Origin: Candidatus Woesebacteria bacterium RIFCSPHIGHO2_01_FULL_39_32
Lineage (GTDB): Bacteria; Patescibacteriota; Microgenomatia; UBA8517
DNA length: 64,000 nt
Assembly: GCA_001792345.1 (NCBI GenBank)
Contig: MGGJ01000001.1
Coordinates: 48,486 to 112,485, forward strand
Direction: 5' to 3'
Of the stretch, positions 6,216-46,647 are shown one piece after another. Position numbers and translations under genes: made by a program. Below the pieces are notes generated by a model. It made no database searches. It had not been told where the DNA came from and was given only the letters and a program-made list of their open reading frames with translations. Each line of letters begins with the position of its first letter. Position 1 is the first letter of the stretch.

Positions 6216-6237
6216 AAAAGAAAGTCCGAAGAAAACT

Positions 6238-21608: not shown

Positions 21609-22859
21609 ATGACAGATTTACAGAAAAAATTTGCATCTGCTGTTGCGGCAGGGACGTTACTTCTGAACCTCGTTACCCCGGCTTTTGCTGGTTACACTTT
21701 TGAAGTATCCGGAAACGGATCCGACTCTGAAAGCGAAGTTAAATTCGAACAAAAGAATGAAGTCAAAGTTGATCAGCAAAACTGGGCTGAGGTTCTTAAC
21801 GATGTCAAAGTTAAAGCCAATACGGGCGACAACGAAGCCAATGATAATACCGGCGGCAAGGTAGAAATAGAAACTGGCGATTCTGAAACTAATGTTTCGG
21901 TTTCAAACGTTTTGAACTCTAATGTTGCAAAGGTAGACGCGTGTTGTGTCAAAAATGTCGAAGCTAAAATTTCCGGCAACGGTTCTGATTCTGAAAATGA
22001 AATCGAACTCGAACTGGAAAATGAAGTGAAACTAAATCAGTACAACAATGCTGTAGTTTTAAACTACGTTGAAACAAAGTCAGAGACTGGAGATAACGAG
22101 GCTGAAGACAACACCAACGGCGACGTATCTATCAAAACAGGCAATGCCAAAACGACCGTAGCTGTTTCAACCGCAGCTAACTCCAATTCTGCTTGGATTT
22201 CAGGTGGAAGCGGGGGCGGCGGCAGTCTTTCTGCGATAATTTCCGGCAACGGTTCTGATTCTGAAAATGAAATCGAACTCGAACTGGAAAATGAGGTTGA
22301 GCTCGATCAGCAAAACTGGGCTGCAATTCTCAATGACGTTGAGGTTGAATCCGAAACTGGAGACAACGAGGCAGAAGACAATACAGGCGGCGAGGTTGAG
22401 ATAGAGACAGGCGATGCCGAAGCCGATGTTACTGTTGACAATATGGTCAACTTTAACTGGGCAGATATTGATGCCTGTGGATGCATCGAAGATATTTTGG
22501 CCAAAATTTCAGGCAATGGTACAGACTCAGAAAATGAGATAGAGGCCGAGCTTGAAAGTGAGTTGGAAGTTGATCAGTACAACGACTTTGACTGTAAAGG
22601 CGAGTTTAAAGATGCATGTGCAGAAGTTGATGTTGAACTGGAAACTGGAGACAATGAAGCTGAGGACAACACACTTGGCGGAGATGATCCAGCCATTGAT
22701 ACTGGTGACGCCGATGCTGGAGTACATGTCAGCAATACCGGCAACTCTAACGTTTTTGGCGCAGCTCCCGAATTAGATTGGGAAATGCCATGGGGATTTG
22801 ATTTCAATTTCAACTTTTCGTTTGATTTGGAAGATCTCCTAGCAGCTCTTTTGGGCTAA
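21609..22859 (+). CDS. Secreted acidic repeat protein 1 (four ~90-aa SGNGSDSEN...TGDNEAEDNTGG..I.TGDA...CC repeats)
   Basis: Signal peptide ending AFA; 4 tandem repeats; Cys pairs; pI strongly acidic; no recognised family. Confidence 0.7.
   Translation: MTDLQKKFASAVAAGTLLLNLVTPAFAGYTFEVSGNGSDSESEVKFEQKNEVKVDQQNWAEVLNDVKVKANTGDNEANDNTGGKVEIETGDSETNVSVSNVLNSNVAKVDACCVKNVEAKISGNGSDSENEIELELENEVKLNQYNNAVVLNYVETKSETGDNEAEDNTNGDVSIKTGNAKTTVAVSTAANSNSAWISGGSGGGGSLSAIISGNGSDSENEIELELENEVELDQQNWAAILNDVEVESETGDNEAEDNTGGEVEIETGDAEADVTVDNMVNFNWADIDACGCIEDILAKISGNGTDSENEIEAELESELEVDQYNDFDCKGEFKDACAEVDVELETGDNEAEDNTLGGDDPAIDTGDADAGVHVSNTGNSNVFGAAPELDWEMPWGFDFNFNFSFDLEDLLAALLG
21968..22294 (+). repeat. 57-nt perfect intragenic direct repeat (21968-22024 and 22238-22294) inside repeat protein 1
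   Basis: Identical DNA aatttccggcaacggttctgattctgaaaatgaaatcgaactcgaactggaaaatga at both positions. Confidence 0.8.
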
Positions 22860-22949: not shown

Positions 22950-25259
22950 ATGTCTGCCCTAGTAAAAGAATTTGAAGAAATCGAAATACGATTAATAAAT
23001 GAGTCAATATATAGTGGTTTTTTTGACAGAATATTAAACCAAGCAAAAACAATTCTTGAAAAGGTGAAAAATAGATTAAATATAATGAACAATAAAGTAA
23101 ATAAAGCAAAAAATTTTGTAGCAGTTTTAATGGTCGTATTGGTTTTATTTGTATATAATCAATACTCTTTCGTTTTAGCACAAACTGCTCCTGAACCACC
23201 TGCTCCACCATCTGCTCCCGAGGCACCGTCTGCACCCTCTGCTCCCGAATCCCCATCTGACAACAATTGGGAAAGTGAAAATCAGGGCGGTGGGGATGAG
23301 GAAAACCATCGTAGATATAGAGACGACGACGAGGAAGACGAAAATGAAAACACTCAGTCCGAAACCACGAACCATCCAAGTCCTACTACAGAGAGTAGTG
23401 GAAATGAAGATGGTAGCGGTAATGTTGGAGATACCCAAATAACTACTGGTGATGCAGTAAATGATGCAGGAATTACAACTTCAGCAAACGAGAATTATTC
23501 AGGAAGTTCTTTACTTCCACAAAATAGTGGAGGTGGAGCTTCGGTATCAAATAAAGATAACGGATCCGGCTCGACTAATTCTGGGTCGGTGAGTTTAACA
23601 AACGACGATACTACTCAACAAACCAATAGCACAGTTGTTGGAAATAATCTTTGGCAGGAAACTGAAACAGGGGACAATTCGGCCTCAAGGAATGTTGGAA
23701 ACTCCACGATAAATACAGGCGATGCAAATACAACAGGGACAATAATTACTTCGGTTAATACAAACATAGATGGTTTGCTAGTAAATGAATTTAATGTCGC
23801 CGATGATCATGTAGGAGACATTATTTTAGATTTCGGGAGTTGTATTTTTGGATGCGCTCCTGGTGATTTAACGGCGCAAAATTCTGGGAATGGTACGGGA
23901 TCAAATAACCAGGCAGAGATTGATTCAAACGTTGATAGTTTTACTTTTCAAAATAATGACGCGGTTGTTGAAAATAATATGACTCTTTCTTCTGATTCAG
24001 GACATAATGACGCTGATAGAAATACCGGCGGAGATTCAGAAATTGTAACTGGAGATGCAAATGTATCTGCAAACGCTTTAACATTTGCCAACAATAATAT
24101 TTCCGGCAACGTAATCTACTCGGTAGTAAATATATTTGGAAAATTAATTGGCGACATCCTACTACCGGAAGGATTTTGCTGTTTCAATACAGTTTCTGCA
24201 GAAAATTCTGGAAATGGTTCTGAATCGCTAAACATTGCAGATATTAATCTAACAAACACCGATTTAACTTACCAATTTAATGCAGCCGATATTCAGAATA
24301 ACCTTATTTTATATGCGAACACAGGAGAAAACGATACAAGTAAAAATACAGGTGGTACATCCTCTATAAAAACAGGTTCGGCGAGCGCAAAAGCACAGGT
24401 TGTTAATGTTGCCAATACCAATATTGATGGTGGGGATTGGTGGTTAGTTATTGTAAACGAAGCAGGTAATTGGGTAGGTAAAATTATCGGAGCACCGCTG
24501 GGTTCATTATTTGGCGGGTCCGAAGGTTTTGTATTTGGAGTTTCTGATTCTGGTGAAATAACAGCGACCAATTCAGGTAATGGTTCAGATTCCCAGAACA
24601 CTTCTGGAGTTAGTCAGCAGACTTCAAATACTACGATTCAAAATAACGATGCCACCATTGTTAATAACCTTGATCTTTCTGCAAATACGGGAGCAAACTC
24701 TGCTAGTAGAAATACCGGTGGGGATTCCACAATAAAAACCGGCGATGCCAATATAATCGCAAACTTAGTTAATTTTGTAAATAATAACATTGTGGGAACA
24801 GGTAAACTTTTTGTAACCGTCGTAAACGTATTCGGAAGTTGGTTAGGTGATTTTGTTGGTCCTGGTATGGTAAAAGAGAATGATAATAATAGCCAGCAAG
24901 CGTTGGGTGGTCCAGCGCCTTCTCAAGAAAGTAGTGTAGGCGGCAACGGTAATAGTCAGAGTAAAAGCAGTACGGTGGCAAATGTATCTTTAACACAAAA
25001 TCCACTGCCATCTAGTTCGACACCAGATTCATCGGAGAATTACATTCTTGGGATCTTGAATACTTCAGATGTTGGAGTTTCAGGAGGAGAGGGAGAAGGA
25101 GAAATTGCGGTGGTAGCCGGAACAAATACTCTCAGTCAGGACTCAACTCAGGGTAAAAAGGTTGTTAAAATCAATCTTGCCTGGTTATTGTTCGGAATAC
25201 CAATGGTTGCTTTATACCTAATTCGACGCAAAAGGCTTAATGCTGATCACACTGCCTAA
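22950..25259 (+). CDS. Secreted/anchored repeat protein 2 (paralogue with NSGNGS...NTGGDS.IKTGDAN... repeats, C-terminal TM anchor)
   Basis: Alternative start at 23085 (MNNKV.. then a hydrophobic signal); Pro-rich APEPPAPPSAPE stalk; ≥4 repeats; C-terminal hydrophobic helix plus RRKR. Confidence 0.65.
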   Translation: MSALVKEFEEIEIRLINESIYSGFFDRILNQAKTILEKVKNRLNIMNNKVNKAKNFVAVLMVVLVLFVYNQYSFVLAQTAPEPPAPPSAPEAPSAPSAPESPSDNNWESENQGGGDEENHRRYRDDDEEDENENTQSETTNHPSPTTESSGNEDGSGNVGDTQITTGDAVNDAGITTSANENYSGSSLLPQNSGGGASVSNKDNGSGSTNSGSVSLTNDDTTQQTNSTVVGNNLWQETETGDNSASRNVGNSTINTGDANTTGTIITSVNTNIDGLLVNEFNVADDHVGDIILDFGSCIFGCAPGDLTAQNSGNGTGSNNQAEIDSNVDSFTFQNNDAVVENNMTLSSDSGHNDADRNTGGDSEIVTGDANVSANALTFANNNISGNVIYSVVNIFGKLIGDILLPEGFCCFNTVSAENSGNGSESLNIADINLTNTDLTYQFNAADIQNNLILYANTGENDTSKNTGGTSSIKTGSASAKAQVVNVANTNIDGGDWWLVIVNEAGNWVGKIIGAPLGSLFGGSEGFVFGVSDSGEITATNSGNGSDSQNTSGVSQQTSNTTIQNNDATIVNNLDLSANTGANSASRNTGGDSTIKTGDANIIANLVNFVNNNIVGTGKLFVTVVNVFGSWLGDFVGPGMVKENDNNSQQALGGPAPSQESSVGGNGNSQSKSSTVANVSLTQNPLPSSSTPDSSENYILGILNTSDVGVSGGEGEGEIAVVAGTNTLSQDSTQGKKVVKINLAWLLFGIPMVALYLIRRKRLNADHTA

Positions 25260-25267
25260 ATTGATGA

Positions 25268-26452
25268 ATGACCAAGTTTAAGGCAGAAATTAAAAACAGA
25301 TTCTTCTTTTTAATAAGCTTGCTGTCTATTTTGACCTATCTTTTTTTACCGACAGTACAAGCTGATGAATTAGTGATTACAGATAATGGTTCCGGTTCTA
25401 CTAACGAAGTTCAAGTTCAATCCGAAAGTCAAACAAATATTAACCAAAACAATGAGAGCAATGTTACAAATGAAGTCAATACCTCTGTAAATACCGGCGA
25501 TAATTCTGCGTCTGGCAATACAAATGGGGATGTTGCTATTACAACTGGTGATAGTAACACTCAGATTACTATAGAAAATACCGCAAACACATCTACAGTT
25601 GAGACTCGATGTTGTACTTCTGGGACCACTGCACAAATTTCTGGCAATGGCGCTAATTCAACCAATCAGATTAATACTTCTTCTACTTCAACAACAAATA
25701 TCATAGTTTATCAGAATGCTACCATTACTAATAATATTACTGGATACGTAAATACTGGTAATAATAGCGCCGATGACAATGCTGGTGGGAATGTAGAAAT
25801 AACAACAGGGAACATAAAGGTTCAAGGAAATATTATAAACGGCCCAATAAACTATTCTAATATTGAAACCGCTTTCGGCCTTGCTAGTTTTGTGTCTAAG
25901 ATTTCAGATAATGGTACGAATTCTGAAAACAAAATAAATGTAAATTTTGATTACCAAAGAAACATTAACACCAATTTTAACGCGGATTTAGATAATTACG
26001 TTACATGGGACCTAAATACCGGAGGTAATTCTGCAGATGGAAATACTGAGGGTGATGTGACTATAAATACGGGAGATATATCGCTTGACTTCTTTATTAA
26101 AAATTTTGTAAATCTTGGAAAAGTAGAAGTATCTTGTTGTCCTACTAAAAAAGAGAAAGAGGAGGAAAAACCACCCCCCGGAGTACCACCATATGAAGAA
26201 GAAAAGGAAAATGGTGGGGTGAGTGGTGGAGTTGGTGGAGGCGGTGGCGGTGGTGGTGGCGGGGGAGGAGGTCAAATACTACCAGAAGCTGCAGCGGTAG
26301 AAGCGGGAGGACCAGGAATCGATGGATTATCTGTTACTTCCGGTAGTGGATTTCAATCTCTATTATTCTTCATCGGTCTTGCTATGGTCACATTTGGTGG
26401 TAAAATTGCTACCAATGAACTTTTCCAAAATACTTCAGAAAGGAAAAAGTAA
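25268..26452 (+). CDS. Secreted repeat protein 3 (paralogue; poly-Gly tract; LPEAA/LSVTSG segment, TM and basic tail at C-terminus)
   Basis: Signal peptide ..TVQA; repeats ISGNGANS...NTGNNSADDNAGGNVEITTGN; CC pairs; a 20-residue Gly tract; C-terminal hydrophobic helix plus ERKK. Confidence 0.65.
   Translation: MTKFKAEIKNRFFFLISLLSILTYLFLPTVQADELVITDNGSGSTNEVQVQSESQTNINQNNESNVTNEVNTSVNTGDNSASGNTNGDVAITTGDSNTQITIENTANTSTVETRCCTSGTTAQISGNGANSTNQINTSSTSTTNIIVYQNATITNNITGYVNTGNNSADDNAGGNVEITTGNIKVQGNIINGPINYSNIETAFGLASFVSKISDNGTNSENKINVNFDYQRNINTNFNADLDNYVTWDLNTGGNSADGNTEGDVTINTGDISLDFFIKNFVNLGKVEVSCCPTKKEKEEEKPPPGVPPYEEEKENGGVSGGVGGGGGGGGGGGGGQILPEAAAVEAGGPGIDGLSVTSGSGFQSLLFFIGLAMVTFGGKIATNELFQNTSERKK
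26211..26272 (+). repeat. GGN-codon homopolymeric Gly tract (low-complexity DNA, slippage-prone)
   Basis: ggtggaggcggtggcggtggtggtggcgggggaggagg encodes GGGGGGGGGGGGGG. Confidence 0.7.
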
Positions 26453-29811: not shown

Positions 29812-30276
29812 GTGCAAAATGCAAAGTTAAGAAATAAGTTTAAATTTCTTCCTGACATAGCTACTGCTGATCTTGCTTTTGAGGCTTTTGGAAAAGATGC
29901 TTCTGAATTATTTGAAAATGCTGGACTTGCACTTGAATCTGCTATGGTTGAATCGGATAGTTTGAAAACTCGGGAAGTAAAAGAAATTAATCTTAAAAAT
30001 GAAAACTTAGAGAATCTTTTGTCTTCATTTTTGGAGGAGCTTGTGTTTTTGAAAGATTCAGAACAACTTTTATTTAATAGTATAACCTGCGAGATAAGAA
30101 GTGAGAGTAATAGTAGGAAAAACTCGTATGAGTTGGAAAGTAAACTTGGTGGTGAAAAGATCAACCACAAGAAACATAAACTGGGGGTAGATGTTAAAGC
30201 CGTCACAAAACATCTATTTAAGATCGAACAGCTTGGCGATAAAACTTACCATTGCTTGGTAGTTTTAGATGTTTAA
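29812..30276 (+). CDS. Archease (RtcB activator)
   Basis: N-terminal FKFLPDIATADLAFEAFG matches the archease YxYLxHTADxxxxAYG motif; directly precedes rtcB. Confidence 0.6.
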   Translation: MQNAKLRNKFKFLPDIATADLAFEAFGKDASELFENAGLALESAMVESDSLKTREVKEINLKNENLENLLSSFLEELVFLKDSEQLLFNSITCEIRSESNSRKNSYELESKLGGEKINHKKHKLGVDVKAVTKHLFKIEQLGDKTYHCLVVLDV

Positions 30277-30369: not shown

Positions 30370-31824
30370 ATGGATGCAAATCTTCTTTCTGAGTTCAAGG
30401 AGATAGAAAAGGGTATTTGGGAACTTCAGAAAAGTTTTAAAAAGAAGATGCGCGCTCCACTCCGTATTGTTGCAACAGAGAAATTACTTTCCGATATGGA
30501 TGACGGAGCCGTTGAACAGGGCATAAATGTTGCGAGTTTGCCGGGAATAGTAGGATCTTCCTGGATGATGCCCGATGCCCATTGGGGTTATGGCTTTCCC
30601 ATTGGCGGAGTTGCAGCGTTTGATCTTAAAGAAGGCATAATATCGCCCGGCGGAATTGGTTTTGACATCAATTGCGGAATGAGACTCCTAACGACAAATC
30701 TTACTGAGAAGGAAGTAAGACCGAGAATTGAGCAAATTATTAATGATCTTTTTGATGTAATTCCGGTGGGCGTCGGAGGAGCGGGAAGTGTAAGGCTTTC
30801 TAAAAAGGAATTCAAAGAAGTTATAGTCAAAGGCGCAGCTTGGGCGGTTGAGAATGGTCTAGGTCGGCAGGAAGACTTAAGGCAGATTGAGGAGGGAGGT
30901 TTTATAAAGGATGCAGACCCGTCTGCAGTAAGTGATCGTGCAATTACCCGTGGTATTAATCAACTGGGTACATTGGGGTCGGGCAACCACTATCTTGAAG
31001 TCCAGAAAGTTGAAACTATATTTGATGAAAAAATTTCTCAAGAGTTGGGAATTTTAGAGTCCGGACAAATTGCAGTAATGATTCATTGCGGTAGTCGTGG
31101 TTTTGGACACCAGATTGGTACAGATTACCTAAATTCTTTTGAGCCTGCGATGAAAAAATATAAAATTGAAGTACCCGATAGACAACTTGCGTGTATGCCA
31201 ATTAGTTCTCCCGAAGGGAAAAAGTATTTTTCTGCAATGGCCTGTGCTGCAAATAACGCATTCGCAAATCGACAAATCATTGCTCATAAAGTGAGAGAAG
31301 TTTTCGCTCACATTTTCGGCAGATCTTCCGAGGATTTAGAAATGGATTTGGTTTACGACGTTGCCCACAATATAGCTAAGATAGAGAAACACTCAATAAA
31401 CAATAAGCGGAGCTTGGCCGACGAAGTCGGTAAACAAAAAACAATAAAGGAAGTAATGGTGCATAGAAAGGGGGCGACGAGGGCATTCCCTGGCCAACCC
31501 GTTATTTTGGGTGGATCTATGGAAACTGGCTCGTATCTTTTGATGGGAACAGAAGGGGCAATGCAAAAAACTTTTGGTTCCACCGCTCATGGGTCGGGTA
31601 GGACGATGAGTAGAACTAGGGCAAAACAAATAGTCCGAGGTGAGGAACTTCAGAAAAAAATGAAGAAACGCGGAATTTACGTAAAAACTGCATCATTTTC
31701 AGGATTAGCAGAAGAAGCGGGATTTGCATACAAAGATATCAATGAAGTGGTAACAGCTCTCTCAACTGCCGACATTTCTCAATCAATAGCTTCTTTTAAA
31801 CCTCTGGGAAATATAAAAGGTTAA
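30370..31824 (+). CDS. rtcB: RNA-splicing ligase RtcB
   Basis: 484 aa; GSGNHY, HCGSRGFGHQ and TAHGSGR motifs of the RtcB family. Confidence 0.85.
   Translation: MDANLLSEFKEIEKGIWELQKSFKKKMRAPLRIVATEKLLSDMDDGAVEQGINVASLPGIVGSSWMMPDAHWGYGFPIGGVAAFDLKEGIISPGGIGFDINCGMRLLTTNLTEKEVRPRIEQIINDLFDVIPVGVGGAGSVRLSKKEFKEVIVKGAAWAVENGLGRQEDLRQIEEGGFIKDADPSAVSDRAITRGINQLGTLGSGNHYLEVQKVETIFDEKISQELGILESGQIAVMIHCGSRGFGHQIGTDYLNSFEPAMKKYKIEVPDRQLACMPISSPEGKKYFSAMACAANNAFANRQIIAHKVREVFAHIFGRSSEDLEMDLVYDVAHNIAKIEKHSINNKRSLADEVGKQKTIKEVMVHRKGATRAFPGQPVILGGSMETGSYLLMGTEGAMQKTFGSTAHGSGRTMSRTRAKQIVRGEELQKKMKKRGIYVKTASFSGLAEEAGFAYKDINEVVTALSTADISQSIASFKPLGNIKG
31784..31820 (+). repeat. 37-bp direct repeat copy 1 (last 12 codons of rtcB)
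   Basis: caatagcttcttttaaacctctgggaaatataaaagg; matches 32580-32616 at 36 of 37 positions. Confidence 0.85.
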
Positions 31825-31844
31825 TTTACAAAGGTTAACAAATC

Positions 31845-31872
31845 TTGACAACTTGACAAGAAAATGTAGAAT
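31845..31872 (+). promoter_or_regulatory. Sigma-70-like promoter TTGACA-16-TAGAAT (tandem TTGACA) for the TA pair
   Basis: cttgacaacttgacaagaaaatgtagaat read directly; ATG 13 nt downstream. Confidence 0.4.
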
Positions 31873-31884
31873 TAGAATTAAATT

Positions 31885-32136
31885 ATGAAAGTATTAACTG
31901 TTGGCGAATTTAAATCTAAGTTTTCTGAAGTAATAAATCAGCTTCTAATAGGTAAGGAAGTTGGAGTTACCTATGGCAAGAGTAAAAAACCTATTGGAGT
32001 TTTTGTACCTTATAAATCATATAAAAAGAAAAATAAAATAAAATTGGGATTACTGAAGGGTAAAGCTTCTTTTAAGATAAAAAAAGGGTTTAAAATGACT
32101 ATAGATGAGTTCTTGAATTTGAAAGACACAACTTAA
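31885..32136 (+). CDS. Type II antitoxin (Phd/YefM-like)
   Basis: 83 aa; N-terminal MKVLTVGEFKSKFSEVINQL resembles Phd/YefM; precedes a PIN toxin. Confidence 0.5.
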   Translation: MKVLTVGEFKSKFSEVINQLLIGKEVGVTYGKSKKPIGVFVPYKSYKKKNKIKLGLLKGKASFKIKKGFKMTIDEFLNLKDTT

Positions 32137-32161
32137 AGTTCTTAAATACTCTTAAAGCTGA

Positions 32162-32560
32162 ATGAATTATCTCCTTGATACCCATGTTTTATTGTGGAGT
32201 GTTATTAGCCCAACTAAACTTTCAGAGAGGGTGAGAGAAATTCTCTTTAGTGCGGAGGGAACTAAATTTGTAAGCGCTTTGTCTTTATGGGAAATTTCTT
32301 TGAAGTATTCAATTGGTAAGTTAGAGTTAAAACCAGTAAGCCCGTTAGAGTTTTTGGGTTATATTAAGAAATCTGGATTTAAAACACTATCATTAACTTC
32401 TGAAACAGCCTCCTCTTTTTATAATTTACAAATACTGAAAAATAGAGACCCTTTTGATTTAATGTTAGCGTGGCAAGTAATTCGTGGAGGTTATATTCTC
32501 TTGTCAAAAGATAAGGGATTTGATGATTATCAAAAAGACGGCTTGAAAAGAATTTGGTAA
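32162..32560 (+). CDS. vapC: PIN-domain toxin (VapC-like)
   Basis: LLDTHVLLW start (first acidic Asp); later acidic residues consistent with PIN; 132 aa. Confidence 0.6.
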   Translation: MNYLLDTHVLLWSVISPTKLSERVREILFSAEGTKFVSALSLWEISLKYSIGKLELKPVSPLEFLGYIKKSGFKTLSLTSETASSFYNLQILKNRDPFDLMLAWQVIRGGYILLSKDKGFDDYQKDGLKRIW

Positions 32561-32579
32561 GAAACCGAAATCTTCCAGC

Positions 32580-32616
32580 CAATTGCTTCTTTTAAACCTC
32601 TGGGAAATATAAAAGG
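32580..32616 (+). repeat. 37-bp direct repeat copy 2
   Basis: caattgcttcttttaaacctctgggaaatataaaagg followed by tga; encodes the same ..SFKPLGNIKG* as the rtcB end. Confidence 0.85.
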
Positions 32617-32622
32617 ATGAAT

Positions 32623-32847
32623 TTATCGTCCGTATATATCATCGTCTTCATCACCAAATCTTGGGGGCCATATGGAGCCCGGGAGATATTTAACAAGACC
32701 TTCAGGAGTTAATACGGTAGTTTCTTTCAGGCTAGGATCATTTGGATCACCGGGCAGCTTTAATTCTTTAAACATCTTCTCTCTCGTTGTAAACGGAAGA
32801 AGAATTGGCTTCGAATCAACTTCTTGCACAGGATTATATTTTACCAC
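32623..32847 (-). CDS. Hypothetical small protein (74 aa)
   Basis: ORF with non-repetitive composition, divergent from the rml genes; no motif. Confidence 0.25.
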   Translation of the reverse strand: MVKYNPVQEVDSKPILLPFTTREKMFKELKLPGDPNDPSLKETTVLTPEGLVKYLPGSIWPPRFGDEDDDIYGR

Positions 32848-32888
32848 TTATTGACTATAGTTTGGGGAATTTGGTATTATGCGGGTAT

Positions 32889-33618
32889 TGTGAAAGGTGT
32901 TGTACTTGCTGGAGGACTCGGAACCCGTCTTTATCCTCTTACTTACACCACGAATAAGCATTTACTTCCTATTTATGATCAGCCAATGATTTTTTACCCC
33001 ATTCGGACATTAGTAAAAGCAGGTATAAAGAGTGTCATGGTGGTGGTTAGTGGTCCCCATTCTGGTCAGTTCATACAAATTTTAAAAAATGGAAAAGAGT
33101 TGGGTTTAGAACATTTAGAATATGGTTATCAAGAAAATCCTATGGGCGGCTTGGCAGATGCTTTAAAAGTAGCGGAAGATTTCGCAGATGATGAATCGGT
33201 GACACTGATTCTCGGGGACAATACGACAGACGCTGATGTTTCAAAGGAAATTGCCTCATTTGAAAAAGGTTCAATAATGTTTCTCAAAAAAGTTTCCGAT
33301 CCGGAGCGTTTCGGAGTTCCGATATTCGACAGGAAAGAAAAGCAGAAGATTGTGGGCATCGTCGAAAAACCAAAAAAACCACCATCACAATATGTATCTA
33401 CCGGTTTATATGTTTTTGATAGTAGATGTTTTAACATCGCCAAAGGATTAAAACCATCAAAAAGAGGACAACTTGAAATTGTAGATGTCCAGGATTATTA
33501 CATTAAAGAAGGGACGATGAAGTGGTATGAATTAAAGGGCTATTGGCACGACGTTGGAACTTTTGATAGTCTTTTAGAAGCAAACAAATATTGGGCAAGT
33601 AAGTCGTTAAACCATTAA
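32889..33618 (+). CDS. rmlA: Glucose-1-phosphate thymidylyltransferase-like sugar nucleotidyltransferase (short form)
   Basis: KGVVLAGGLGTRLYPLT...LLPIYDQPMIFYPI; probable GTG start at 32889 (track start 32824 adds an implausible hydrophobic leader). Confidence 0.65.
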
Positions 33619-34625
33619 TGAAACTTCTAGTTACAGGTGGTGCAGGATTCATTGGATCGAATTTTATTCGTTACTGGTTGAAAAAATATCCTAACGATAA
33701 AATTGTTAATCTCGACAAGCTAACATACGCCGGACATCTGTCTTCAACCAAAGACTTTTCGGATAATCCCAAGTGTACATTTATAAAGGGCGATATTTGT
33801 AGCAGTGAACTGGTCCATGAAATCATGAAAGCTATCGATATCGTTGTCCACTTTGCAGCGGAGTCACACGTCGACCGTTCAATAGTAGGACCTGCAACCT
33901 TTGTAAAAACTAATATTTTAGGCACACAAGTCTTATTGGACGCAGCGGTTAAGAATAAAGTAAAAAGATTTCATCATGTCTCAACAGATGAAGTATTTGG
34001 GTCACTTCCATTAAATAGTAAAGCAAAGTTTTCTGAAAAGACAATTTATGATCCAAAGAGTCCGTATTCTGCTTCAAAAGCAGCATCCGATCATCTGGTT
34101 CGTGCTTATCACAATACTTATGGTTTGGATATTACGATAACTAACACCTCAAATAACTACGGTCCTTATCAAGACCCTGAAAAATTTCTGCCCCGAATGA
34201 TTACTAATTTAATTGACGATAAAGAAATTCCTATTTACGGTGACGGTAAATACGTTAGGGATTGGATTTATGTTGAAGATCACTGTAGAGCAATTGACAT
34301 TGTATTACAGAAAGCTAAGGTGGGTGAAACATATCTTGTGGGTGGGTTGACTAAGGATGTTAATAATTTGCAAATCGCTAAAAAGCTTCTGAAGATTTTT
34401 CGATATGATGAATCATATTTGAAGTTTGTAAAAGATAGGCCAGGACATGATAGAAGGTATGCTGTTAATTGGAGTAAAATAAAGCTAGAATTGGGGTGGA
34501 AACCAAAATACGATTTTGATACGTGGCTTGAAAGAACAGTAGAATGGTATAAATATAATGAGTGGTGGTGGAGACCGATTAAAAAGGAAGCGGAGAAATT
34601 ATATGCAAAAACTGGACAAAAATAA
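33618..34625 (+). CDS. rmlB: dTDP-glucose 4,6-dehydratase
   Basis: VTGGAGFIGSNF; YSASKAASD (YxxxK); 335 aa. Confidence 0.8.
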   Translation: MKLLVTGGAGFIGSNFIRYWLKKYPNDKIVNLDKLTYAGHLSSTKDFSDNPKCTFIKGDICSSELVHEIMKAIDIVVHFAAESHVDRSIVGPATFVKTNILGTQVLLDAAVKNKVKRFHHVSTDEVFGSLPLNSKAKFSEKTIYDPKSPYSASKAASDHLVRAYHNTYGLDITITNTSNNYGPYQDPEKFLPRMITNLIDDKEIPIYGDGKYVRDWIYVEDHCRAIDIVLQKAKVGETYLVGGLTKDVNNLQIAKKLLKIFRYDESYLKFVKDRPGHDRRYAVNWSKIKLELGWKPKYDFDTWLERTVEWYKYNEWWWRPIKKEAEKLYAKTGQK

Positions 34626-34627
34626 CT

Positions 34628-35170
34628 ATGGACCCTGATAAAATAACAGTTGAATGGTTACAAAATCAAGAAACAGTAGGTAAGTTTCAGGTACAAAATA
34701 TTTATAAACCTCCGACTATTGAAGGTGTAATTTTAAAAGAGTTAAATCCGTTAGTTGATGGTAGGGGTGATGTGATCGAACTTTGGAGTAAGCCTTGGGT
34801 TGAAAAGGAGGGTTTTGTAGTTCCAACACATTGTTATCAAAGCGCAACGGACTTCGGTGTTGTCAAATGTTGGCATCTTCATAAAATTCACACAGATCAA
34901 TTTACTGTTACTCGGGGTAAGTTACAAGTTTCATTAGTCGATATAAGAAAGGATTCAAAGACTTTTGGGCATGTAAATTTAGTTTTTTTGGGAGTTCAGC
35001 GACCCAGGCTTCTTAAAATTCCTCCAGGAATTATGCATGGATGGAAAGCTCTGACTAAACCCGAGGTTATTGTTGTTAATTTTCAGTCGCATGTTTATGA
35101 TGCAATGGATGAATATAAATTTCCCTGGAATTGTGTATTAGAAAATATTTGGGAACCGAAAAATGGATAA
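34628..35170 (+). CDS. rmlC: dTDP-4-dehydrorhamnose 3,5-epimerase (cupin)
   Basis: 180 aa; RmlC-like cupin; positioned between rmlB and rmlD. Confidence 0.6.
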   Translation: MDPDKITVEWLQNQETVGKFQVQNIYKPPTIEGVILKELNPLVDGRGDVIELWSKPWVEKEGFVVPTHCYQSATDFGVVKCWHLHKIHTDQFTVTRGKLQVSLVDIRKDSKTFGHVNLVFLGVQRPRLLKIPPGIMHGWKALTKPEVIVVNFQSHVYDAMDEYKFPWNCVLENIWEPKNG

Positions 35171-35173
35171 ACT

Positions 35174-36088
35174 ATGAAAGGATTAATTTTAGTTACCGGT
35201 TCTGAGGGCTTGGTTGGCTCCAGGTTTGTGGAGCTGTCCGAACTAAAAGATTCACTTCATTTGCCAAAAGAAGTTGAACTCGACATAACCGATAAGTCAG
35301 AACTGAAAGCAGTCTTTAGAAGTTTTGATTTCCGTGCTGTTGTTCATTTTGCGGCTTTTACTGATGTTGCTAAGGCCGAAGAGGAAAGAGGGGATAAATA
35401 TGGAGATTGCTGGCAGGTCAATGTGGAAGGGACAAGAAATCTAGTAGAAGCTGTTAAACCTCATAAGGCTAGAATTCATTTTATCCAGATTTCGACAGAC
35501 ATGGTCTTTTCGGGTAGTACCTGGGATCCTGGGGCGTATAAAGAGGATCATTCTCCTGAGAAAGATTCGAACAAAGTTTCATGGTATGGTTTTACAAAAG
35601 CAGAAGCTGAGCGGATAGTTCAAAGCACTTTAGGTGCATCCGCAACAGTTTTAAGAATTATTTACCCCGTACGTGCTAAGTTTGATAAAAAATTGGACTA
35701 TATTAGAAAGCCTTTACAACTATACGACGAAGGTAAACTATATCCAATGTTTACAGATCAACAAATATCAATAAGTTTTGTTGACGAAGTCAGTTTAGCG
35801 CTAGATAAAATTATAATAGAAGGATATAGGGGAATCTTCCATGCTGCTTCCCGCGATACTACAACTCCACATAAACTCCTAAGCTTTTGTTTAGAAAAGA
35901 CCCGCGGTATTAAAAATGCTGTAAAGCCAACCACCTTAAAGGAGTTTTTACAAAAAACCGAAGCATCAGCCCAACGTTACCCTAAATTTGGTGGTTTGAG
36001 AGTGGAAGAGACGGAGCAAAAACTAGGCATGAGGTTTAGTACTTGGAAACAGATAGTTGAAAAATTAGTAAATCAAGGTTTGGGGTGA
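35174..36088 (+). CDS. rmlD: dTDP-4-dehydrorhamnose reductase
   Basis: ILVTGSEGLVGS Rossmann motif; 304 aa; operon context. Confidence 0.65.
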   Translation: MKGLILVTGSEGLVGSRFVELSELKDSLHLPKEVELDITDKSELKAVFRSFDFRAVVHFAAFTDVAKAEEERGDKYGDCWQVNVEGTRNLVEAVKPHKARIHFIQISTDMVFSGSTWDPGAYKEDHSPEKDSNKVSWYGFTKAEAERIVQSTLGASATVLRIIYPVRAKFDKKLDYIRKPLQLYDEGKLYPMFTDQQISISFVDEVSLALDKIIIEGYRGIFHAASRDTTTPHKLLSFCLEKTRGIKNAVKPTTLKEFLQKTEASAQRYPKFGGLRVEETEQKLGMRFSTWKQIVEKLVNQGLG

Positions 36089-36128
36089 CAACAGAAAACC
36101 TATAACAATTCATTATTATCCTCTATAG

Positions 36129-36157
36129 TTGAAATACTAAATATCCTCTAGTATAAT
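36129..36157 (+). promoter_or_regulatory. Sigma-70-like promoter TTGAAA-17-TATAAT
   Basis: ttgaaaTACTAAATATCCTCTAGtataat read directly; ~65 nt before the megaprotein ATG. Confidence 0.5.
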
Positions 36158-36224
36158 ACCTTACCTTCGAATGTGCCTGATTTAAACTGCCTTGGCTTTT
36201 CGTGGGTAAATAATTATTGTTATA

Positions 36225-39200
36225 ATGCCCAAACTAGATGTAGTTATACCTGCTCATAACGAATCCGATAATATTATTGAATTATTGGTAAGGCTCGAAA
36301 GAGCGCTATTTAATGCTGGAATAAAATACAACATTTTTGTTGTTGATAATCGCTCTTCTGACGGAACTGATGAAAGGGTAAAAGAATACATAAATAGTTC
36401 GAATTCTTCGTCGATAAAACTCTTGTACAAAAAAGATAAACAGGGAAAGGCATATGCAATTCTGGAAGGTACACATTACGGTAAAGCGCCCTATATAGCC
36501 ATGATTGATGGAGATCTTCAGTATCCCCCGGAAGTGTTACCTGAGATGTTTAAACTTGTTAAAAAATTTGGGGTCGTTGTGGCAAACAGAAAAAAGAATG
36601 GTGCTGGATTTTTAAGAAAAATAGGCACCAGGCTTAACAGATACATCTTCGAGAAAAAACTTTTGGGTTTGAATTGTGATACGCAATCAGGCCTGAAGGT
36701 TTTTAAGCGAGAGATTATACGTTATTTACATGAGGCTGATGTAAAACCATGGTCTATAGATATGCCTCTCTTGGTTACCGCTAGGCGCCTTGGCTACAAA
36801 ATTGCAACCGTCGATATCGAATTTGCCAAGAGAAAATCAGGTTTATCAAAGGTTAGTTTTCTAAAAACAGGTTTTCAGATAGCGACAACTGCAATCTCAC
36901 TAAAACTTTCAGAAAAAAAACCATTTAAAGTATTACCCAAAAACGAACGTTCACCAATCGGAGCTGGGGTAGTTTACAAAGGTCGAAGGTTTACTACCCA
37001 CACAAACCTTCCATTCTCGGAGACTGCTTTGAAGACCCTTAATATTCGTCAGAAATTATTACTGGGTGCAGTAGTTTTACTACTAACTGCTGGTCTTTTT
37101 ATAAACGCGAAGGGTACCGTGATTATACTCATAGCACTTCTATCCGCACTGTATTTTTTGGATTTTATTTTTACAACTTTTATTCTTCTTAGGAGTTTGT
37201 CTAAGAATATCGAAATTAAATTTTCGAAAAAGTCATTGGGACAGTTAAATGACAAAAGTCTTCCCAAATACAGCATTTTGTGTCCGCTTTACAAAGAGGC
37301 TAACGTATTACCTGACTTTGTAAAAGCAATAAATAATTTAGACTGGCCAAAGGATAAGCTTGACGTTATTTTGCTCCTTGAAGAAAACGATAAAGAAACA
37401 CAAAAGGCTGCGGAAAACCTTTCCGATCAGAGTCATTTTAGAGTACTCGTGGTACCCCATTCTCTTCCTAAGACTAAACCTAAAGCTTGCAATTACGGTT
37501 TAGCGTTTGCAAAGGGAGAATATGTAGTTGTCTATGATGCAGAGGATAGACCCGATCCGATGCAACTGAAAAAAGCATACATTGGTTTTAAAAGATCCGC
37601 CTCAAAAGTCGTTTGTCTACAATCAAAACTGAATTACTACAATCCGGATCAAAATTTTTTAACAAAGCTTTTTACAGCAGAATATTCATTATGGTTTGAT
37701 TTGATCTTACCTGGACTTCAGTCGGTGAAAACCATAATCCCGCTTGGTGGGACAAGCAATCATTTTAAACTTTTCGTTTTAAGAGATTTAGGAGGTTGGG
37801 ACGCTTTTAATGTTACAGAGGATTGTGAATTGGGGACGCGCCTTTTTAGAAAGGGTTTTACAACGGCAATAATTGATTCTACGACTTATGAAGAAGCAAA
37901 TAGCAAGGTCAAAAGTTGGTTAAAACAACGTTCACGTTGGATTAAAGGGTATCTGCAAACTTATTTCGTTCACACAAGACATCCTCTTAGTTTTGTTGTT
38001 GATCATGGGGTCCAGGCATTTATATTCCAACTAGTTATTGGAATGCGGATGATCTTCATCATGATAAACCCCATTCTTTGGCTAGTTACTATTTCTTATT
38101 TTATGTTTAGGCCGACTCTTGGGTTAACAATTGAATCTTTATATCCAACACCAATTTTTTATATGGCGGTTTTTCCTATGATCTTTGGGAATTTTCTTTA
38201 CCTTTATAACTACATGATAGCCTTAGCAAAAAGAGAAAAGTGGTACCTAATAAAATACGTTTATTTAGTTCCTTTTTACTGGGTAATGGTGAGTTTTGCG
38301 TCATTTATCGCACTCTATCAGTTGATTGTTAAACCTCACTATTGGGAAAAGACAGAACATGGGTTTCATCTTGCACCAAAGAAAAAAGAATCTAAGTCAC
38401 CAGGGCTTGCTATTTCCTTATCTATTCCTTCCCTGCAAGAATCTTTTTTTGATTCGGTAAGAAATTTACTGAAGAAGGAAAACTTTGCTTTGGGAGCAAT
38501 TTTACTAATTATTTCTTCCGGTTTAGTAAATTTTATTGACTTTCTTTATAACGCGTATCTGGGAAGAAAATTAGAAATTGTGGAGTTTGGAAACGTAGCA
38601 CTCCTTGGAAATTTCATAACAATTGCTGGAATTTTAACAAGCGCCCTAATGAGAGTTACAACCCATAAGGCAAGTTACTTCTTTGGGAAACATAACGCTC
38701 CGGCCAAGGAATTTTGGAGAAGAATTAAGAAGTGGGTTTGGTTCGGATCTTTGGCAGCAACGTTTGTCTGGGTTATTTCTATCCCGTCATTAGGAAATTA
38801 TTTTAATATCGGTGGCTTAATGCAGTTTGTTCTCTTCACTCCGTTTTGGACAGTTGGTTTTCTGGCCGGACTAAATATAGGCTTTTTAGGAGGAAACTTT
38901 AAATTTAGTGTGATTGCATTAATTTCATTTGTTGAAGTACTTACAAAATTACTTATTGCTGTAGTTACAGTAGAAATGGGATATCCCTCACTCGTTTATA
39001 TTTCTTTACCAATCTCAGTAGTTATTGCGTTTTTCATTAGTTACATCGTCATTTCCAGGATGCAGGATGCGAAGGATTACAAAGATAAAGAAAGCGACCT
39101 AACTTTCCCGCGCGGATTTTTCCTTGCATCCTTACTAACCAATGTGTCGATAGTTGCCTTTTTATCAATCGATGTTGTACTTGCAAAACATTATCTTTCT

Positions 39201-40931
39201 CCCGTCGAGGCCGGGAATTATGCGCTTTTATCTTTGTCAGGGAAAATCATTTATTTTTTGGGCGGTCTTTTTATTCAGTTTGTAAATCCTCTTATTAGTA
39301 GACAGGAAGGTCAAGGAAGAGTATCCCGTAGAACTTTTTACCTTTTATTTATCAGTTCTTCGACTGTTAGCTTAATGGGTTATGTGGGAATTGGACTATT
39401 CGGTAAGGTAACGATGCCTCTACTTTTTGGAGATAAAGCTAATGCAATTCTTCCTATTCTGCCGTTATATGGACTTGGTATTGCCGCATATTCTATAGCT
39501 AGCTTTTTTACCATCTACCATCAAGTCAGAAAACACTATATTTTCTCGGTACTTGCAATTCTAGTTTCGGCTGCACAGATATTTTATATCGCTCTATTCC
39601 ATTCTTCTACCGAAATGATTGCTATGGTTACAACATTGACGGGAATAGGATTTCTAATCTACTCAATTATTCTTCACCTGTCATATAAGCAGTTAACTAG
39701 CATCTCGAATAACATTTTGGACTTCTTTGATCTCTTCGGTCCATCAGCTCCTATATCTTCGGATAAAATTAAAATCCTCATTTTCAACTGGAGGGACGTA
39801 AAACATGTTTGGGCCGGAGGGTCAGAAATTTATATTCACGAGATTGCAAAGCGTTGGGTCAGAAAAGGTCATCAGGTAACTCTATTTTGTGGAAATGACG
39901 GTAAAAACAAAAGAGAAGAAAAAGTTGCGGGAGTTAAAGTAATTAGAAGGGGTGGATTTTATACAGTCTATTTATGGGCTTTTTTATACTATATTTTTCG
40001 GTTTAGAAAAAAGTTTGGTGTAGTAATCGATTGTGAGAATGGGATACCCTTTTTCACTCCTTTATATGTGAAGGAACCGCATGTTTTATTAATGCATCAT
40101 GTACACAAAGATATTATTTTGAAGGAAATGAAACTTCCAAAATTGCTTCTTCCGGTCGCTTTTGTGACAAAGAAGCTTGAGGAAGTACTGATGCCAGTAT
40201 TGTATAGAAAGTCAAGGATTATAGCTGTTTCTAAATCTACGAAAGATGACTTAGAAAAAATTGGTTTGGGAACAAAGGAAAAAATATCCGTCGTAAACCC
40301 TGGTGTCGAATTGGAGAAATTCAAAGTTGGGAAGAAAACTGCCTACCCCTCAATCCTTTATTTGGGAAGATTAAAGCAATACAAGTCTATCGACACTATT
40401 ATTAAGGCAATGCCTACGGTTTTAGCCAAACATCCAAGTGCAATTCTACATATTGCAGGTTTTGGCGAAGCGTATAGATACTTAGAAAAGTTGGCACGAA
40501 AACTATTACCCGATAAAAGTTTCATGTTTTGGGGAAAAGTAAGCGATGGAGTTAGGGCAAAACTTATGAGTTCTTCCTGGGTATTTGTTTACCCTTCGAC
40601 AATGGAAGGTTGGGGAATTTCTGTAATTGAAGCAAATGCTTGCGGGACTCCTGTTGTGGCCTCAAATGTTCCGGGATTGCGTGACTCTGTAAAAAATCCA
40701 TCAAGCGGGTTTCTAGTTGCTCCGAAAAATAGCGACGAATTTGCAGAAAAAATAAATCTGATTCTCTCGGATATAAGGTTAAGGACTACTTTATCAAAAG
40801 AAAGTCTTAAATGGGCAACTGGATTCACTTGGGACAAAAGCGCCGAGGAATTTATGAAAGTTTTAATTGATACCATAGCTATTGGAGAGGGTTATTCGTT
40901 GATGCCGAATGCCAGTTTATCAAAACAGTGA
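36225..40931 (+). CDS. 1568-aa multidomain glycan-synthesis protein: GT2 (DPM1-like) - TM - GT2 (processive, QxxRW) - MOP/Wzx-like flippase - GT4
   Basis: aa 1-230: VVIPAHNESDNI, DGD (DxD); aa 340-600: DAEDRPD, TED, QRSRW (nt ~37926) flanked by TM helices; aa ~730-1130: >10 TM helices with AGNYALLSLSGK (Wzx G.Y motif); aa ~1150-1568: GT4 with EGWGISVIEANACGTPVVAS; continuous ORF, no internal stop. Confidence 0.7.
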   Translation: MPKLDVVIPAHNESDNIIELLVRLERALFNAGIKYNIFVVDNRSSDGTDERVKEYINSSNSSSIKLLYKKDKQGKAYAILEGTHYGKAPYIAMIDGDLQYPPEVLPEMFKLVKKFGVVVANRKKNGAGFLRKIGTRLNRYIFEKKLLGLNCDTQSGLKVFKREIIRYLHEADVKPWSIDMPLLVTARRLGYKIATVDIEFAKRKSGLSKVSFLKTGFQIATTAISLKLSEKKPFKVLPKNERSPIGAGVVYKGRRFTTHTNLPFSETALKTLNIRQKLLLGAVVLLLTAGLFINAKGTVIILIALLSALYFLDFIFTTFILLRSLSKNIEIKFSKKSLGQLNDKSLPKYSILCPLYKEANVLPDFVKAINNLDWPKDKLDVILLLEENDKETQKAAENLSDQSHFRVLVVPHSLPKTKPKACNYGLAFAKGEYVVVYDAEDRPDPMQLKKAYIGFKRSASKVVCLQSKLNYYNPDQNFLTKLFTAEYSLWFDLILPGLQSVKTIIPLGGTSNHFKLFVLRDLGGWDAFNVTEDCELGTRLFRKGFTTAIIDSTTYEEANSKVKSWLKQRSRWIKGYLQTYFVHTRHPLSFVVDHGVQAFIFQLVIGMRMIFIMINPILWLVTISYFMFRPTLGLTIESLYPTPIFYMAVFPMIFGNFLYLYNYMIALAKREKWYLIKYVYLVPFYWVMVSFASFIALYQLIVKPHYWEKTEHGFHLAPKKKESKSPGLAISLSIPSLQESFFDSVRNLLKKENFALGAILLIISSGLVNFIDFLYNAYLGRKLEIVEFGNVALLGNFITIAGILTSALMRVTTHKASYFFGKHNAPAKEFWRRIKKWVWFGSLAATFVWVISIPSLGNYFNIGGLMQFVLFTPFWTVGFLAGLNIGFLGGNFKFSVIALISFVEVLTKLLIAVVTVEMGYPSLVYISLPISVVIAFFISYIVISRMQDAKDYKDKESDLTFPRGFFLASLLTNVSIVAFLSIDVVLAKHYLSPVEAGNYALLSLSGKIIYFLGGLFIQFVNPLISRQEGQGRVSRRTFYLLFISSSTVSLMGYVGIGLFGKVTMPLLFGDKANAILPILPLYGLGIAAYSIASFFTIYHQVRKHYIFSVLAILVSAAQIFYIALFHSSTEMIAMVTTLTGIGFLIYSIILHLSYKQLTSISNNILDFFDLFGPSAPISSDKIKILIFNWRDVKHVWAGGSEIYIHEIAKRWVRKGHQVTLFCGNDGKNKREEKVAGVKVIRRGGFYTVYLWAFLYYIFRFRKKFGVVIDCENGIPFFTPLYVKEPHVLLMHHVHKDIILKEMKLPKLLLPVAFVTKKLEEVLMPVLYRKSRIIAVSKSTKDDLEKIGLGTKEKISVVNPGVELEKFKVGKKTAYPSILYLGRLKQYKSIDTIIKAMPTVLAKHPSAILHIAGFGEAYRYLEKLARKLLPDKSFMFWGKVSDGVRAKLMSSSWVFVYPSTMEGWGISVIEANACGTPVVASNVPGLRDSVKNPSSGFLVAPKNSDEFAEKINLILSDIRLRTTLSKESLKWATGFTWDKSAEEFMKVLIDTIAIGEGYSLMPNASLSKQ

Positions 40932-42048: not shown

Positions 42049-42052
42049 TATT

Positions 42053-43749: not shown

Positions 43750-43751
43750 AC

Positions 43752-45107: not shown

Positions 45108-45115
45108 GTAATAAA

Positions 45116-46645: not shown

Positions 46646-46647
46646 TT

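Follow-up and report, generated by a model that had tools for sequence, protein, structure and literature searches.

A toxin-antitoxin cassette inserted directly behind rtcB in a Woesebacteria genome

Related systems

Restriction-modification (RM) systems - the closest described precedent. Small addiction-type RM units are found inserted with no mobility gene, flanked by direct repeats that are single-copy at the empty site of a related genome (2000, Gene 259:99; Furuta, Abe & Kobayashi 2010, NAR, PMC2853133). The criteria used were a duplication of >30 bp, an insert of <20 kb and the absence of mobility genes; repeat length varies between events, and some repeats overlap the 3' end of a gene. 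The locus described here fits these criteria, with a repeat of 37 nt (36/37) extending to 59 nt, a spacing of 796 bp, only a toxin-antitoxin (TA) pair between the repeats, and a single-copy repeat without insert at the homologous site of relatives, although these are other species. It differs in that the cargo is a type II TA pair, for which reason we treat it as a variant and not as a member in the strict sense, and the reviews that we consulted cite the phenomenon only for RM. The hosts are CPR bacteria and a DPANN archaeon, the repeats are mosaic (83% with a perfect core) and not near-identical to each other as in that paper, and one cassette lineage keeps the same target fragment attached across hosts and builds arrays. 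Literature searches found no prior description of TA cassettes with long target duplications or of TA insertions in CPR.

Integrative elements and genomic islands that target the 3' end of tRNA or protein genes by means of a tyrosine integrase (attL/attR). Here too the insertion is at a gene's 3' end, the end is regenerated by element-borne sequence, direct repeats bound the insert, and tandem accretion at one site is possible. However no integrase was found in or near our insert, the duplicated length is not fixed across cases, and the element is only about 0.8 kb.

pdif modules of Acinetobacter plasmids. These are small recombinase-less cassettes, frequently TA systems, bounded by short conserved XerC/XerD sites. 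pdif sites are 28-bp Xer sites in alternating orientation on plasmids, whereas here the boundaries are direct repeats of the coding sequence of the chromosomal target gene, and no Xer-like site is evident.

VapBC-type type II TA systems with Phd/YefM-class antitoxins. The locus shares with these a PIN toxin gene with all four acidic residues, preceded by a small antitoxin gene, and a near-palindromic operator overlapping a strong promoter. The antitoxin assignment is weak, and no NCBIfam model matches either protein.

The locus

The locus is in a groundwater Woesebacteria genome, in a stretch of 64 kb which we refer to as the window. The features, with positions in the window, are as follows.

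29812..30276 (+), archease gene (RtcB cofactor); PF01951 E=1.6e-33; native context, in the same position in all syntenic relatives (L015, L100, L181, L183, L184 and L194).
30370..31824 (+), rtcB, RNA 3'-phosphate/5'-OH ligase gene, intact, 484 aa, the insertion target; full-length match to Pfam RtcB (PF01139), E=3.5e-164; ends in ADISQSIASFKPLGNIKG and stop, where relatives have ADISQP[VI]ASFKPLGNIKG and stop.
31769..31827 (+), direct repeat copy 1, the functional last 19 codons plus the stop of rtcB; exact core 31789-31820.
31825..31843 (+), 19-nt filler between the rtcB stop and the conserved left end of the cassette (the left junction zone); in an alignment of five cassette loci conservation begins at CTTGACAA (31844), and sequence to the left is locus-specific.
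31844..31872 (+), cassette promoter and operator, with CTTGACAACTTGACAAG as a near-palindrome at 31844-31860, -35 TTGACA, a 16-nt spacer and -10 TAGAAT; the motif is unique in the window and is conserved upstream of the antitoxin gene in L095, L186, L188 and L191.
31885..32136 (+), antitoxin gene, 83 aa, with a tentatively Phd/YefM-like N-terminal domain.
32162..32560 (+), VapC-type PIN-domain toxin gene, 132 aa.
32564..32623 (+), direct repeat copy 2, a non-coding rtcB 3' pseudo-fragment reading (E)TEIFQPIASFKPLGNIKG followed by TGA; exact core 32585-32616.
32623..32847 (-), convergent 74-aa ORF, the first native gene downstream, marking the right edge of the insertion; it has no NCBIfam match.

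A repeat search gave one direct-repeat family, 31769-31827 against 32565-32623, of 59 nt at 83% identity (49/59) with a spacing of 796. The 32-mer GCTTCTTTTAAACCTCTGGGAAATATAAAAGG occurs exactly twice, at 31789-31820 and 32585-32616, and none of 100 dinucleotide shuffles gave a match. The left 24 nt has 8 mismatches and the 32-nt core none (P=5e-4). This is the only non-intragenic direct repeat of at least 28 nt in the window. Copy 1 is the true end of rtcB (SIASFKPLGNIKG-TAA), and copy 2 reads ETEIFQPIASFKPLGNIKG-TGA.

An earlier note on this sequence had reported that the last 37 nt of rtcB recur, 36 of 37 identical, about 760 bp downstream, right after the vapC stop, with a TTGACA promoter and an antitoxin-toxin pair in between. 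The observation is confirmed. The two 37-mers (31784-31820 and 32580-32616) are 36/37 identical and 759 nt apart, but the homology begins at about 32564, 3-4 nt after the vapC stop (32558-32560), which is earlier than had been noticed. The promoter, TTGACA-16-TAGAAT at 31845-31872, matches at 11 of 12 sigma-70 positions.

The toxin matches PIN (PF01850, E=2.1e-12, 48.2 bits against a cut-off of 23.6), and D6, E44, D99 and D117 are invariant in an alignment of 27 homologues. There are more than 300 homologues, mostly Microgenomates. The antitoxin gene lies 25 nt before vapC, and the pair is conserved at five other loci. The antitoxin match to Phd/YefM is weak (PF02604, E=2.7e-4, 21.1 bits, below the curated cut-off of 29.8), with 5 of 7 aligned family members matching PF02604, best 1.9e-6, and a profile search found no PDB hit.

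Evidence for insertion

Five syntenic relatives (L015, L181/182, L183, L184/185 and L194; RtcB 74-81% identical) have a single rtcB end followed directly by the native downstream genes, with no cassette; this is the empty-site test that the earlier note had proposed. A convergent small ORF follows rtcB directly at the same position in L015 (72 aa), L181 (85 aa) and L183 (69 aa), its homology being judged from position and from reading the translations, not by alignment. The earlier note had named conditions that would count against an insertion, and neither was found: no relative has the duplication without an insert, and copy 2 lies in the 62-nt gap between vapC and the convergent ORF, not inside a conserved gene. 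Cassette GC is 30.4%, against 42.4% for rtcB and 37.6% for the window. In the RtcB tree the occupied sites (window and L100) fall in different clades, each with empty-site sisters, and L100+L184 has 94% bootstrap support.

The cassette belongs to a Microgenomates family with a conserved operator, and the same promoter-antitoxin-toxin unit sits at unrelated loci (glycan, hydrolase and T4SS-like regions). In L099, a related cassette locus whose contig lacks its upstream part, so that adjacency to rtcB is unproven there, vapC is about 94% identical to that of the window at the nucleotide level. Identity drops to 63-73% across the rtcB fragment and vanishes after its stop. The L099 fragment is closest (48/52) to the L015-type rtcB allele, and the downstream gene differs.

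The joint between the vapC stop and the rtcB fragment is at the same rtcB codon in three cassette lineages, the window, L099 and both fragments of L095, although VapC is only 54% identical between the window and L095. The relative L100/L095 carries four rtcB ends in series, separating a 4.6-kb glycan block, Phd-VapC, and RHH-PIN_3 with a vapC remnant. L095 has a 32/32 core inside a repeat that is 86% identical. An archaeon (L052) independently has an MNT-HEPN pair between 83-nt rtcB-end repeats; no syntenic relative of L052 was found to serve as an archaeal empty site. Repeat length is 37-59 nt here, 83 nt in L052, 169 nt in L095, and 41-104 nt around related VapC cassettes (L105, L109 and L139), with flank-control scores never exceeding 13.

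We found no integrase or transposase in the insert, among Pfam hits within 6 kb, or in 10 otherwise unassigned ORFs between 40.9 and 61.5 kb of the window, the inspection being confined to these 64 kb of the genome and only in part by Pfam. The repeat has no terminal inverted repeats of the kind that a transposon, IS or MITE would have, the only inverted repeat being a chance pairing of the operator with vapC coding sequence, and the duplication of 37-59 nt is not a short one of fixed length. There is also no hairpin of the kind expected for an integron attC site, as both strands of both repeats fold no better than shuffles (z +0.6 to +0.9).

Origin of the insertion

We suggest that a 717-bp self-contained type II TA cassette (31844-32560) was acquired horizontally and integrated at the extreme 3' end of rtcB without a recombinase of its own, with about 57 nt of the rtcB end now standing on both sides. 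We would put the probability of this reading at about one half. The most likely mechanism is that the cassette travels with an rtcB-end fragment joined to the vapC stop codon, that the fragment pairs with the conserved 3' end of a resident rtcB, and that host homologous recombination then integrates the DNA, either by a Campbell-type single crossover of a circular form or by an equivalent two-arm exchange of linear DNA. In this view copy 1 keeps rtcB intact and copy 2 is a displaced hybrid fragment; recombination between the repeats could release a circle again or restore the empty site, and the addictive TA pair would counter-select such loss. The mosaic identity of the repeats fits crossover or conversion in a block of perfect identity, not a uniform fill-in duplication. 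The insertion, its boundaries, the absence of nearby mobility genes, the recurrence of the rtcB fragment and the mosaic identity rest directly on the sequences, whereas the circle, RecA dependence, the direction of transfer, and the toxin and antitoxin activities themselves are inferred.

However there are difficulties. No circular form or excision product has been seen, and all contigs found carrying this species' RtcB, VapC or both carry the cassette. The L099 fragment is "fresh" over its whole length, which the homology model explains only with a crossover at the far left or with later gene conversion. A homology arm of 32-57 nt is near the lower limit for RecA-type recombination. Most family members at other loci show no flanking repeats, so this cannot be the only way in which the family moves.

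The earlier note had read the locus as a site-specific insertion, either a target duplication or an attL/attR-like pair, of a mobile module targeting an RNA-repair gene. Its core interpretation, an inserted TA module whose flanking duplication regenerates the rtcB end, is supported, as is mobility. Targeting of rtcB holds for one sublineage only (the window, L099 and L095/L100), and a cognate integrase or attL/attR system is not supported.

A recombinase encoded elsewhere and acting in trans, with the conserved rtcB 3' end as attB, an attP-like copy on the cassette, the repeats as attL/attR and arrays formed by serial integration as at tRNA genes, is not excluded, but we consider it unlikely. 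The shared joint in three lineages is what an enzyme with a fixed cut would give, both ends share an identical core, the L100 array shows tandem accretion, and the gene end is regenerated as with elements that target gene 3' ends. However common descent of the joint explains its position equally well, and no integrase lies in the 796-bp insert, within 6 kb, or in the 4.6-kb block or other units of the L100 array. The boundaries are not fixed, as the second L095 unit duplicates 169 nt including vapC coding sequence and the archaeal case duplicates 83 nt from a different rtcB position. The core has no significant structure, its small inverted symmetry following from the F-K / I-K-G codons, and other cassettes of the family carry no such site.

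It is also possible, but more doubtful still, that there was a single ancient insertion in the common ancestor of these Woesebacteria-like genomes, then lost precisely several times by recombination between the repeats, with gene conversion from rtcB keeping the fragment young in appearance. Identities between the window and L100 (VapC 54%, antitoxin 66%) are within the range of flanking proteins (54-87%), descent would explain the shared joint, and direct repeats make precise loss easy. Against this, the L099 cassette is about 94% identical to that of the window at the nucleotide level and yet its fragment matches a different rtcB allele and its downstream DNA is unrelated, the tree needs at least three losses against two gains, and there is an independent archaeal case with a different TA family. 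Much the same doubt applies to the locus being the remnant of a larger integrase-bearing island at the rtcB end. TA modules are common cargo of integrative elements and are expected to be the last genes lost, being addictive, and L100 shows that larger blocks can occupy the site. However the unit is minimal with the same tight boundaries in several lineages, where random decay should leave variable debris. The operator starts 4-19 nt after the left repeat (19 nt in the window, 4-11 nt in L100 depending on where the fragment frag0 is taken to end), the right repeat starts 0-13 nt after the toxin stop in the window, L099, L095, L052, L139 and L105, and the same bare unit occurs at other loci. 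An assembly artefact or chance repeat can be all but dismissed, as the structure occurs in more than 20 independent contigs from different samples and assemblers, including two NCBI MAGs, and no shuffle gave a match to the 32-mer. One scaffold (L014) does contain a third rtcB end, but this is a chimera following a run of 10 Ns, and the "missing" rtcB of L012 is just a 40-N gap.

How chromosomal TA loci move between genomes and sites without visible mobility genes is an old open question, and this locus offers a clean, compact case, with defined boundaries, empty sites, a family of related cassettes, a serial array and an independent archaeal parallel. It points to a recombinase-less, homology-based route previously documented only for RM systems, and shows that such traffic operates in the tiny genomes of CPR bacteria and DPANN archaea. 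It also raises the idea that RNase toxins and the RtcB repair ligase are linked functionally; RtcB is known to reverse MazF cleavage of 16S rRNA (Temmel et al. 2016, as cited in PMC5408214). A more speculative reading, which we think unlikely although not excluded, is that the fragment is a portable homing arm. A recombinase-free cassette would then permanently carry about 57 nt of the highly conserved rtcB 3' end and use host homologous recombination to home into rtcB of new hosts, where it could excise as a circle and stack into arrays. The pairing of RNase toxins (PIN in bacteria, HEPN in archaea) with the ligase would then be selected for and not accidental, because RtcB can reverse toxin damage.

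Other observations

Plasmid (DNA) and phage (protein) searches for the cassette found nothing, and there is no rtcB fragment in 80 metagenome loci of VapC relatives or in L186-L193, which excludes a fragment common to all of them. Nor is rtcB a general hotspot: of 82 rtcB loci scanned within 4 kb downstream only L052 has a second rtcB end, the L100 copies lying beyond that range, and the site is recurrent, not universal.

A weak in-register similarity upstream of the repeat (31709-31726 against 32505-32522; 43% over 31700-31768 against 27% background) suggested that the vapC 3' end might derive from rtcB. We rejected this, as the motif SKDKGFDDY..GLKRxW is conserved in VapC homologues at loci that have nothing to do with rtcB. 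Copy 2 is in frame with vapC, and a read-through fusion seemed possible, but this was rejected because the L099 fragment is out of frame by 1 nt.

The duplication at the end of rtcB

The window is from a groundwater Microgenomates bacterium, Candidatus Woesebacteria RIFCSPHIGHO2_01_FULL_39_32, and the same locus is present in GCA_001793105.1 and GCA_001791885.1. The rtcB gene (Pfam RtcB, E=3.5e-164) follows an archease gene, and the features relevant here are:

30370..31824, rtcB
31769-31827, the last 59 nt of rtcB (copy 1)
31825-31843, 19-nt filler after the rtcB stop
31844-32560, conserved unit with promoter, antitoxin and toxin genes
32565-32623, second copy of the rtcB end (copy 2)

The two copies are 83% identical with a spacing of 796 nt, and include an exact 32-nt core that did not occur in any of 100 shuffles. 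The 37-nt duplication claimed in the earlier note is 36/37. Copy 2 reads ETEIFQPIASFKPLGNIKG-TGA, and it starts 3-4 nt after the vapC stop and ends 2 nt before the stop of a convergent 74-aa ORF. Between the copies there is a promoter, TTGACA-16-TAGAAT, that matches at 11 of 12 positions, then a gene for an 83-aa antitoxin with a weak Phd/YefM match, and a gene for a 132-aa PIN toxin with all catalytic acidic residues. More than 20 contigs from several assemblies carry exactly this structure, and the observation made in the earlier note is confirmed.

Comparison with loci lacking the cassette

Relatives with 74-81% RtcB identity keep the same upstream gene order of RNaseH-like, archease and rtcB genes, plus sortase, CAP and NTP-transferase genes where the contig extends that far, and downstream they have the rml sugar genes. 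These relatives (L015, L181/182, L183, L184/185 and L194) have a single rtcB end, followed directly by the small convergent ORF or by rmlA. Deletion of one repeat plus the cassette from the window reproduces that arrangement, and the segment is an insertion. The cassette is also AT-richer, with 30.4% GC against 42.4% for rtcB.

The 19-nt filler after the rtcB stop (TTTACAAAGGTTAAC..) resembles the sequence after the rtcB stop in L015 (5462-5495; ATTTAAGGTTAAC), which there covers the end of the convergent small ORF. It may be a relic of donor flanking DNA, or the resemblance may be due to chance. Scaffold L014 has at 1859-1990, after a 10-N gap, an rtcB 3' end of a different allele (..AVSLADISQPVVSFKPLGNIKG*) joined directly to a sequence that, as judged by eye and not by alignment, reads the same as the rmlA promoter region of the window (32851 onward). 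This is probably a scaffolding chimera, but it hints at a co-existing strain with rtcB directly upstream of rmlA, with neither the cassette nor the small ORF.

The cassette family

VapC homologues at 45-60% identity are common in Microgenomates. In Gottesmanbacteria, Levybacteria and other contigs the same antitoxin-toxin pair is in unrelated neighbourhoods, with the same operator and promoter, CTTGACAA[C/G]TTG[A/T]CAAGAAAAT..TAnAAT, and these copies have no rtcB fragment and no flanking repeats. The conserved unit in the window is therefore 31844-32560, and the cassette belongs to a mobile family.

Cassettes associated with the rtcB end

One sublineage is tied to the rtcB end. L099 is a 1.3-kb Hainich groundwater contig whose VapC is 95% identical to that of the window. 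Its vapC stop is followed at once by IVDISQPAASFKPLGNIKG*, and then by a PEP-utilizer gene instead of the neighbours found in the window. Nucleotide identity to the window is about 94% across vapC, 63-73% across the fragment and nil beyond it, and the fragment is closest (48/52) to the L015-type rtcB allele. This shows that the cassette moved horizontally.

The contig L100/L095 (L100 6001-13413 / L095 4660-6380; ERZ27254843 k141_2461807) is another syntenic relative, and has an array of four rtcB-end copies. The intact rtcB is followed in series by a 4.6-kb minus-strand block of glycan genes (GH18, GT2, deacetylase, PMT_2), then a degenerate rtcB end plus the conserved promoter and Phd-VapC (54% identity to the VapC of the window), then a second rtcB-end fragment plus an RHH-PIN_3 pair and a 128-nt vapC 3' remnant, and finally a third fragment. 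In all four cassette-linked fragments the rtcB homology begins at the same codon (A of ADISQP), directly after the vapC stop.

In an RtcB tree L100 pairs with L184, which lacks the cassette, with 94% bootstrap. The window groups with L015, L194 and L183, all without the cassette, though that grouping has weak support. The pattern therefore needs at least two gains or many losses.

Parallels at other loci

We scanned 82 rtcB loci for a second rtcB end. An Aenigmatarchaeota contig, L052 (JACPNN010000015.1, 5398-6615), has an 83-nt repeat of its rtcB 3' end at 94% identity, 1135 nt downstream, and the repeats bracket an MNT (NTP_transf_2) plus HEPN toxin-antitoxin pair, in what is an independent archaeal case. 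There too the toxin stop is at the repeat boundary, and a 19-nt tandem repeat lies just upstream of the MNT start codon. The rtcB gene of L052 is also interrupted near its 5' end, at 3183-4286, by a LAGLIDADG_3 homing-endonuclease ORF (E=8.6e-23), probably an intein or similar selfish insert in the same gene. A Woesearchaeota locus, L045 (RIFOXYD1_FULL_40_14, 5724-6664), has an MNT-like plus HEPN-like gene pair immediately downstream of rtcB, with no detectable repeat of the rtcB end.

Among about 50 metagenomic loci of related VapC cassettes, in unrelated contigs, four have direct repeats across the cassette: L139 (about 100 nt; 184-287 / 965-1068), L109 (about 85 nt; 661-745 / 1498-1582), L105 (41 nt; 2099-2139 / 3312-3352) and L126 (18 nt). 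In L109 the repeat is part of the downstream flavoprotein gene, and a decayed 5' fragment of that gene lies upstream of the cassette. Control comparisons never exceeded a score of 13.

Mechanism of insertion

No integrase or transposase is present in the insert, in the other units of the L100/L095 array, or within 6 kb, and none was found among the unassigned ORFs that we tested further out. The repeat does not fold and there are no terminal inverted repeats. Repeat lengths differ between events, from 37 to 169 nt. The identity of the repeats is mosaic, as in the window 8 of the left 24 nt differ but none of the 32-nt core does (P=5e-4), and in L095 a 32/32 core lies inside a repeat that is 86% identical. 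A staggered-cut duplication would give uniformly identical copies, whereas a mosaic with a block of perfect identity is what recombination or conversion between two diverged homologous segments leaves behind.

The best-supported model, to which we give a probability of about 0.5, is that the cassette carries an rtcB-end fragment joined to the vapC stop and recombines with the conserved end of a resident rtcB, either as a circle by a single crossover or as linear DNA whose two arms both match rtcB. In this view copy 2 would be cassette-derived left of the crossover and free to decay, giving ETEIF in the window and TDLK and RILK in L095, and right of the crossover it would be the host's own displaced rtcB end. 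At 31778-31786 the live rtcB encodes Q-S-I, where 57 of the 60 closest RtcB sequences have Q-P-[VI], and the displaced copy 2 keeps Q-P-I. The insertion, its boundaries, the horizontal movement, the recurrence and the mosaic pattern are shown by the sequences, but the circle, the dependence on RecA and the direction of exchange are our inference. A site-specific recombinase acting in trans remains possible, as the joint is at the same position in three lineages, but we think it unlikely.

Comparison with known systems

With regard to what is already known, the comparison is with restriction-modification (RM) units inserted with long target duplication. Those are compact addiction modules with no mobility genes, with repeats of more than 30 bp that are single-copy in the empty site and sometimes overlap gene 3' ends (PMC2853133). 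The two TA/RM reviews that cite this phenomenon cite it for RM systems only, and we found no report of it for TA cassettes or for CPR/DPANN genomes. The rtcB locus fits the structural criteria of repeat length, insert size, lack of mobility genes and a repeat that is single-copy at the empty site of related genomes, though its two repeats are identical only in the core, but its cargo is a TA pair and not an RM system, and it adds two features, a target fragment that stays attached to the cassette lineage and the presence of serial arrays. It works like an integrative element at the 3' end of a gene but has no integrase in the regions examined, and it is not a transposon, MITE or integron cassette. 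The interpretation in the earlier note, that a mobile TA module inserted at rtcB with regeneration of the gene end, is essentially right apart from the implied integrase.

Possible function and genomic setting

Judged from sequence, the TA pair looks intact and autoregulated, with a near-palindromic operator over the promoter. The presence of RNase toxins next to an RNA ligase plus archease in two domains of life is suggestive. RtcB reverses MazF cleavage of 16S rRNA (cited in PMC5408214). HEPN RNases leave RtcB-type ends, and this VapC may or may not do so. However with only three or four cases the association may simply reflect a well-conserved landing sequence at the edge of a variable glycan-gene region.

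Downstream of the insertion, at 32881-48252, there is a long cell-surface glycan region, with rmlABCD-like genes, a gene for a 1568-aa multi-domain glycosyltransferase, and GT4, PIG-L, GT2 and polysaccharide deacetylase genes. Its content differs between relatives, so rtcB marks the edge of a variable island. Elsewhere in the window, at 21609-22859, there is a gene for a 416-aa acidic repeat protein with internal repeats of 264-288 nt (60-75% identical), next to genes for other large repeat-rich, probably surface, proteins (22950-26452).
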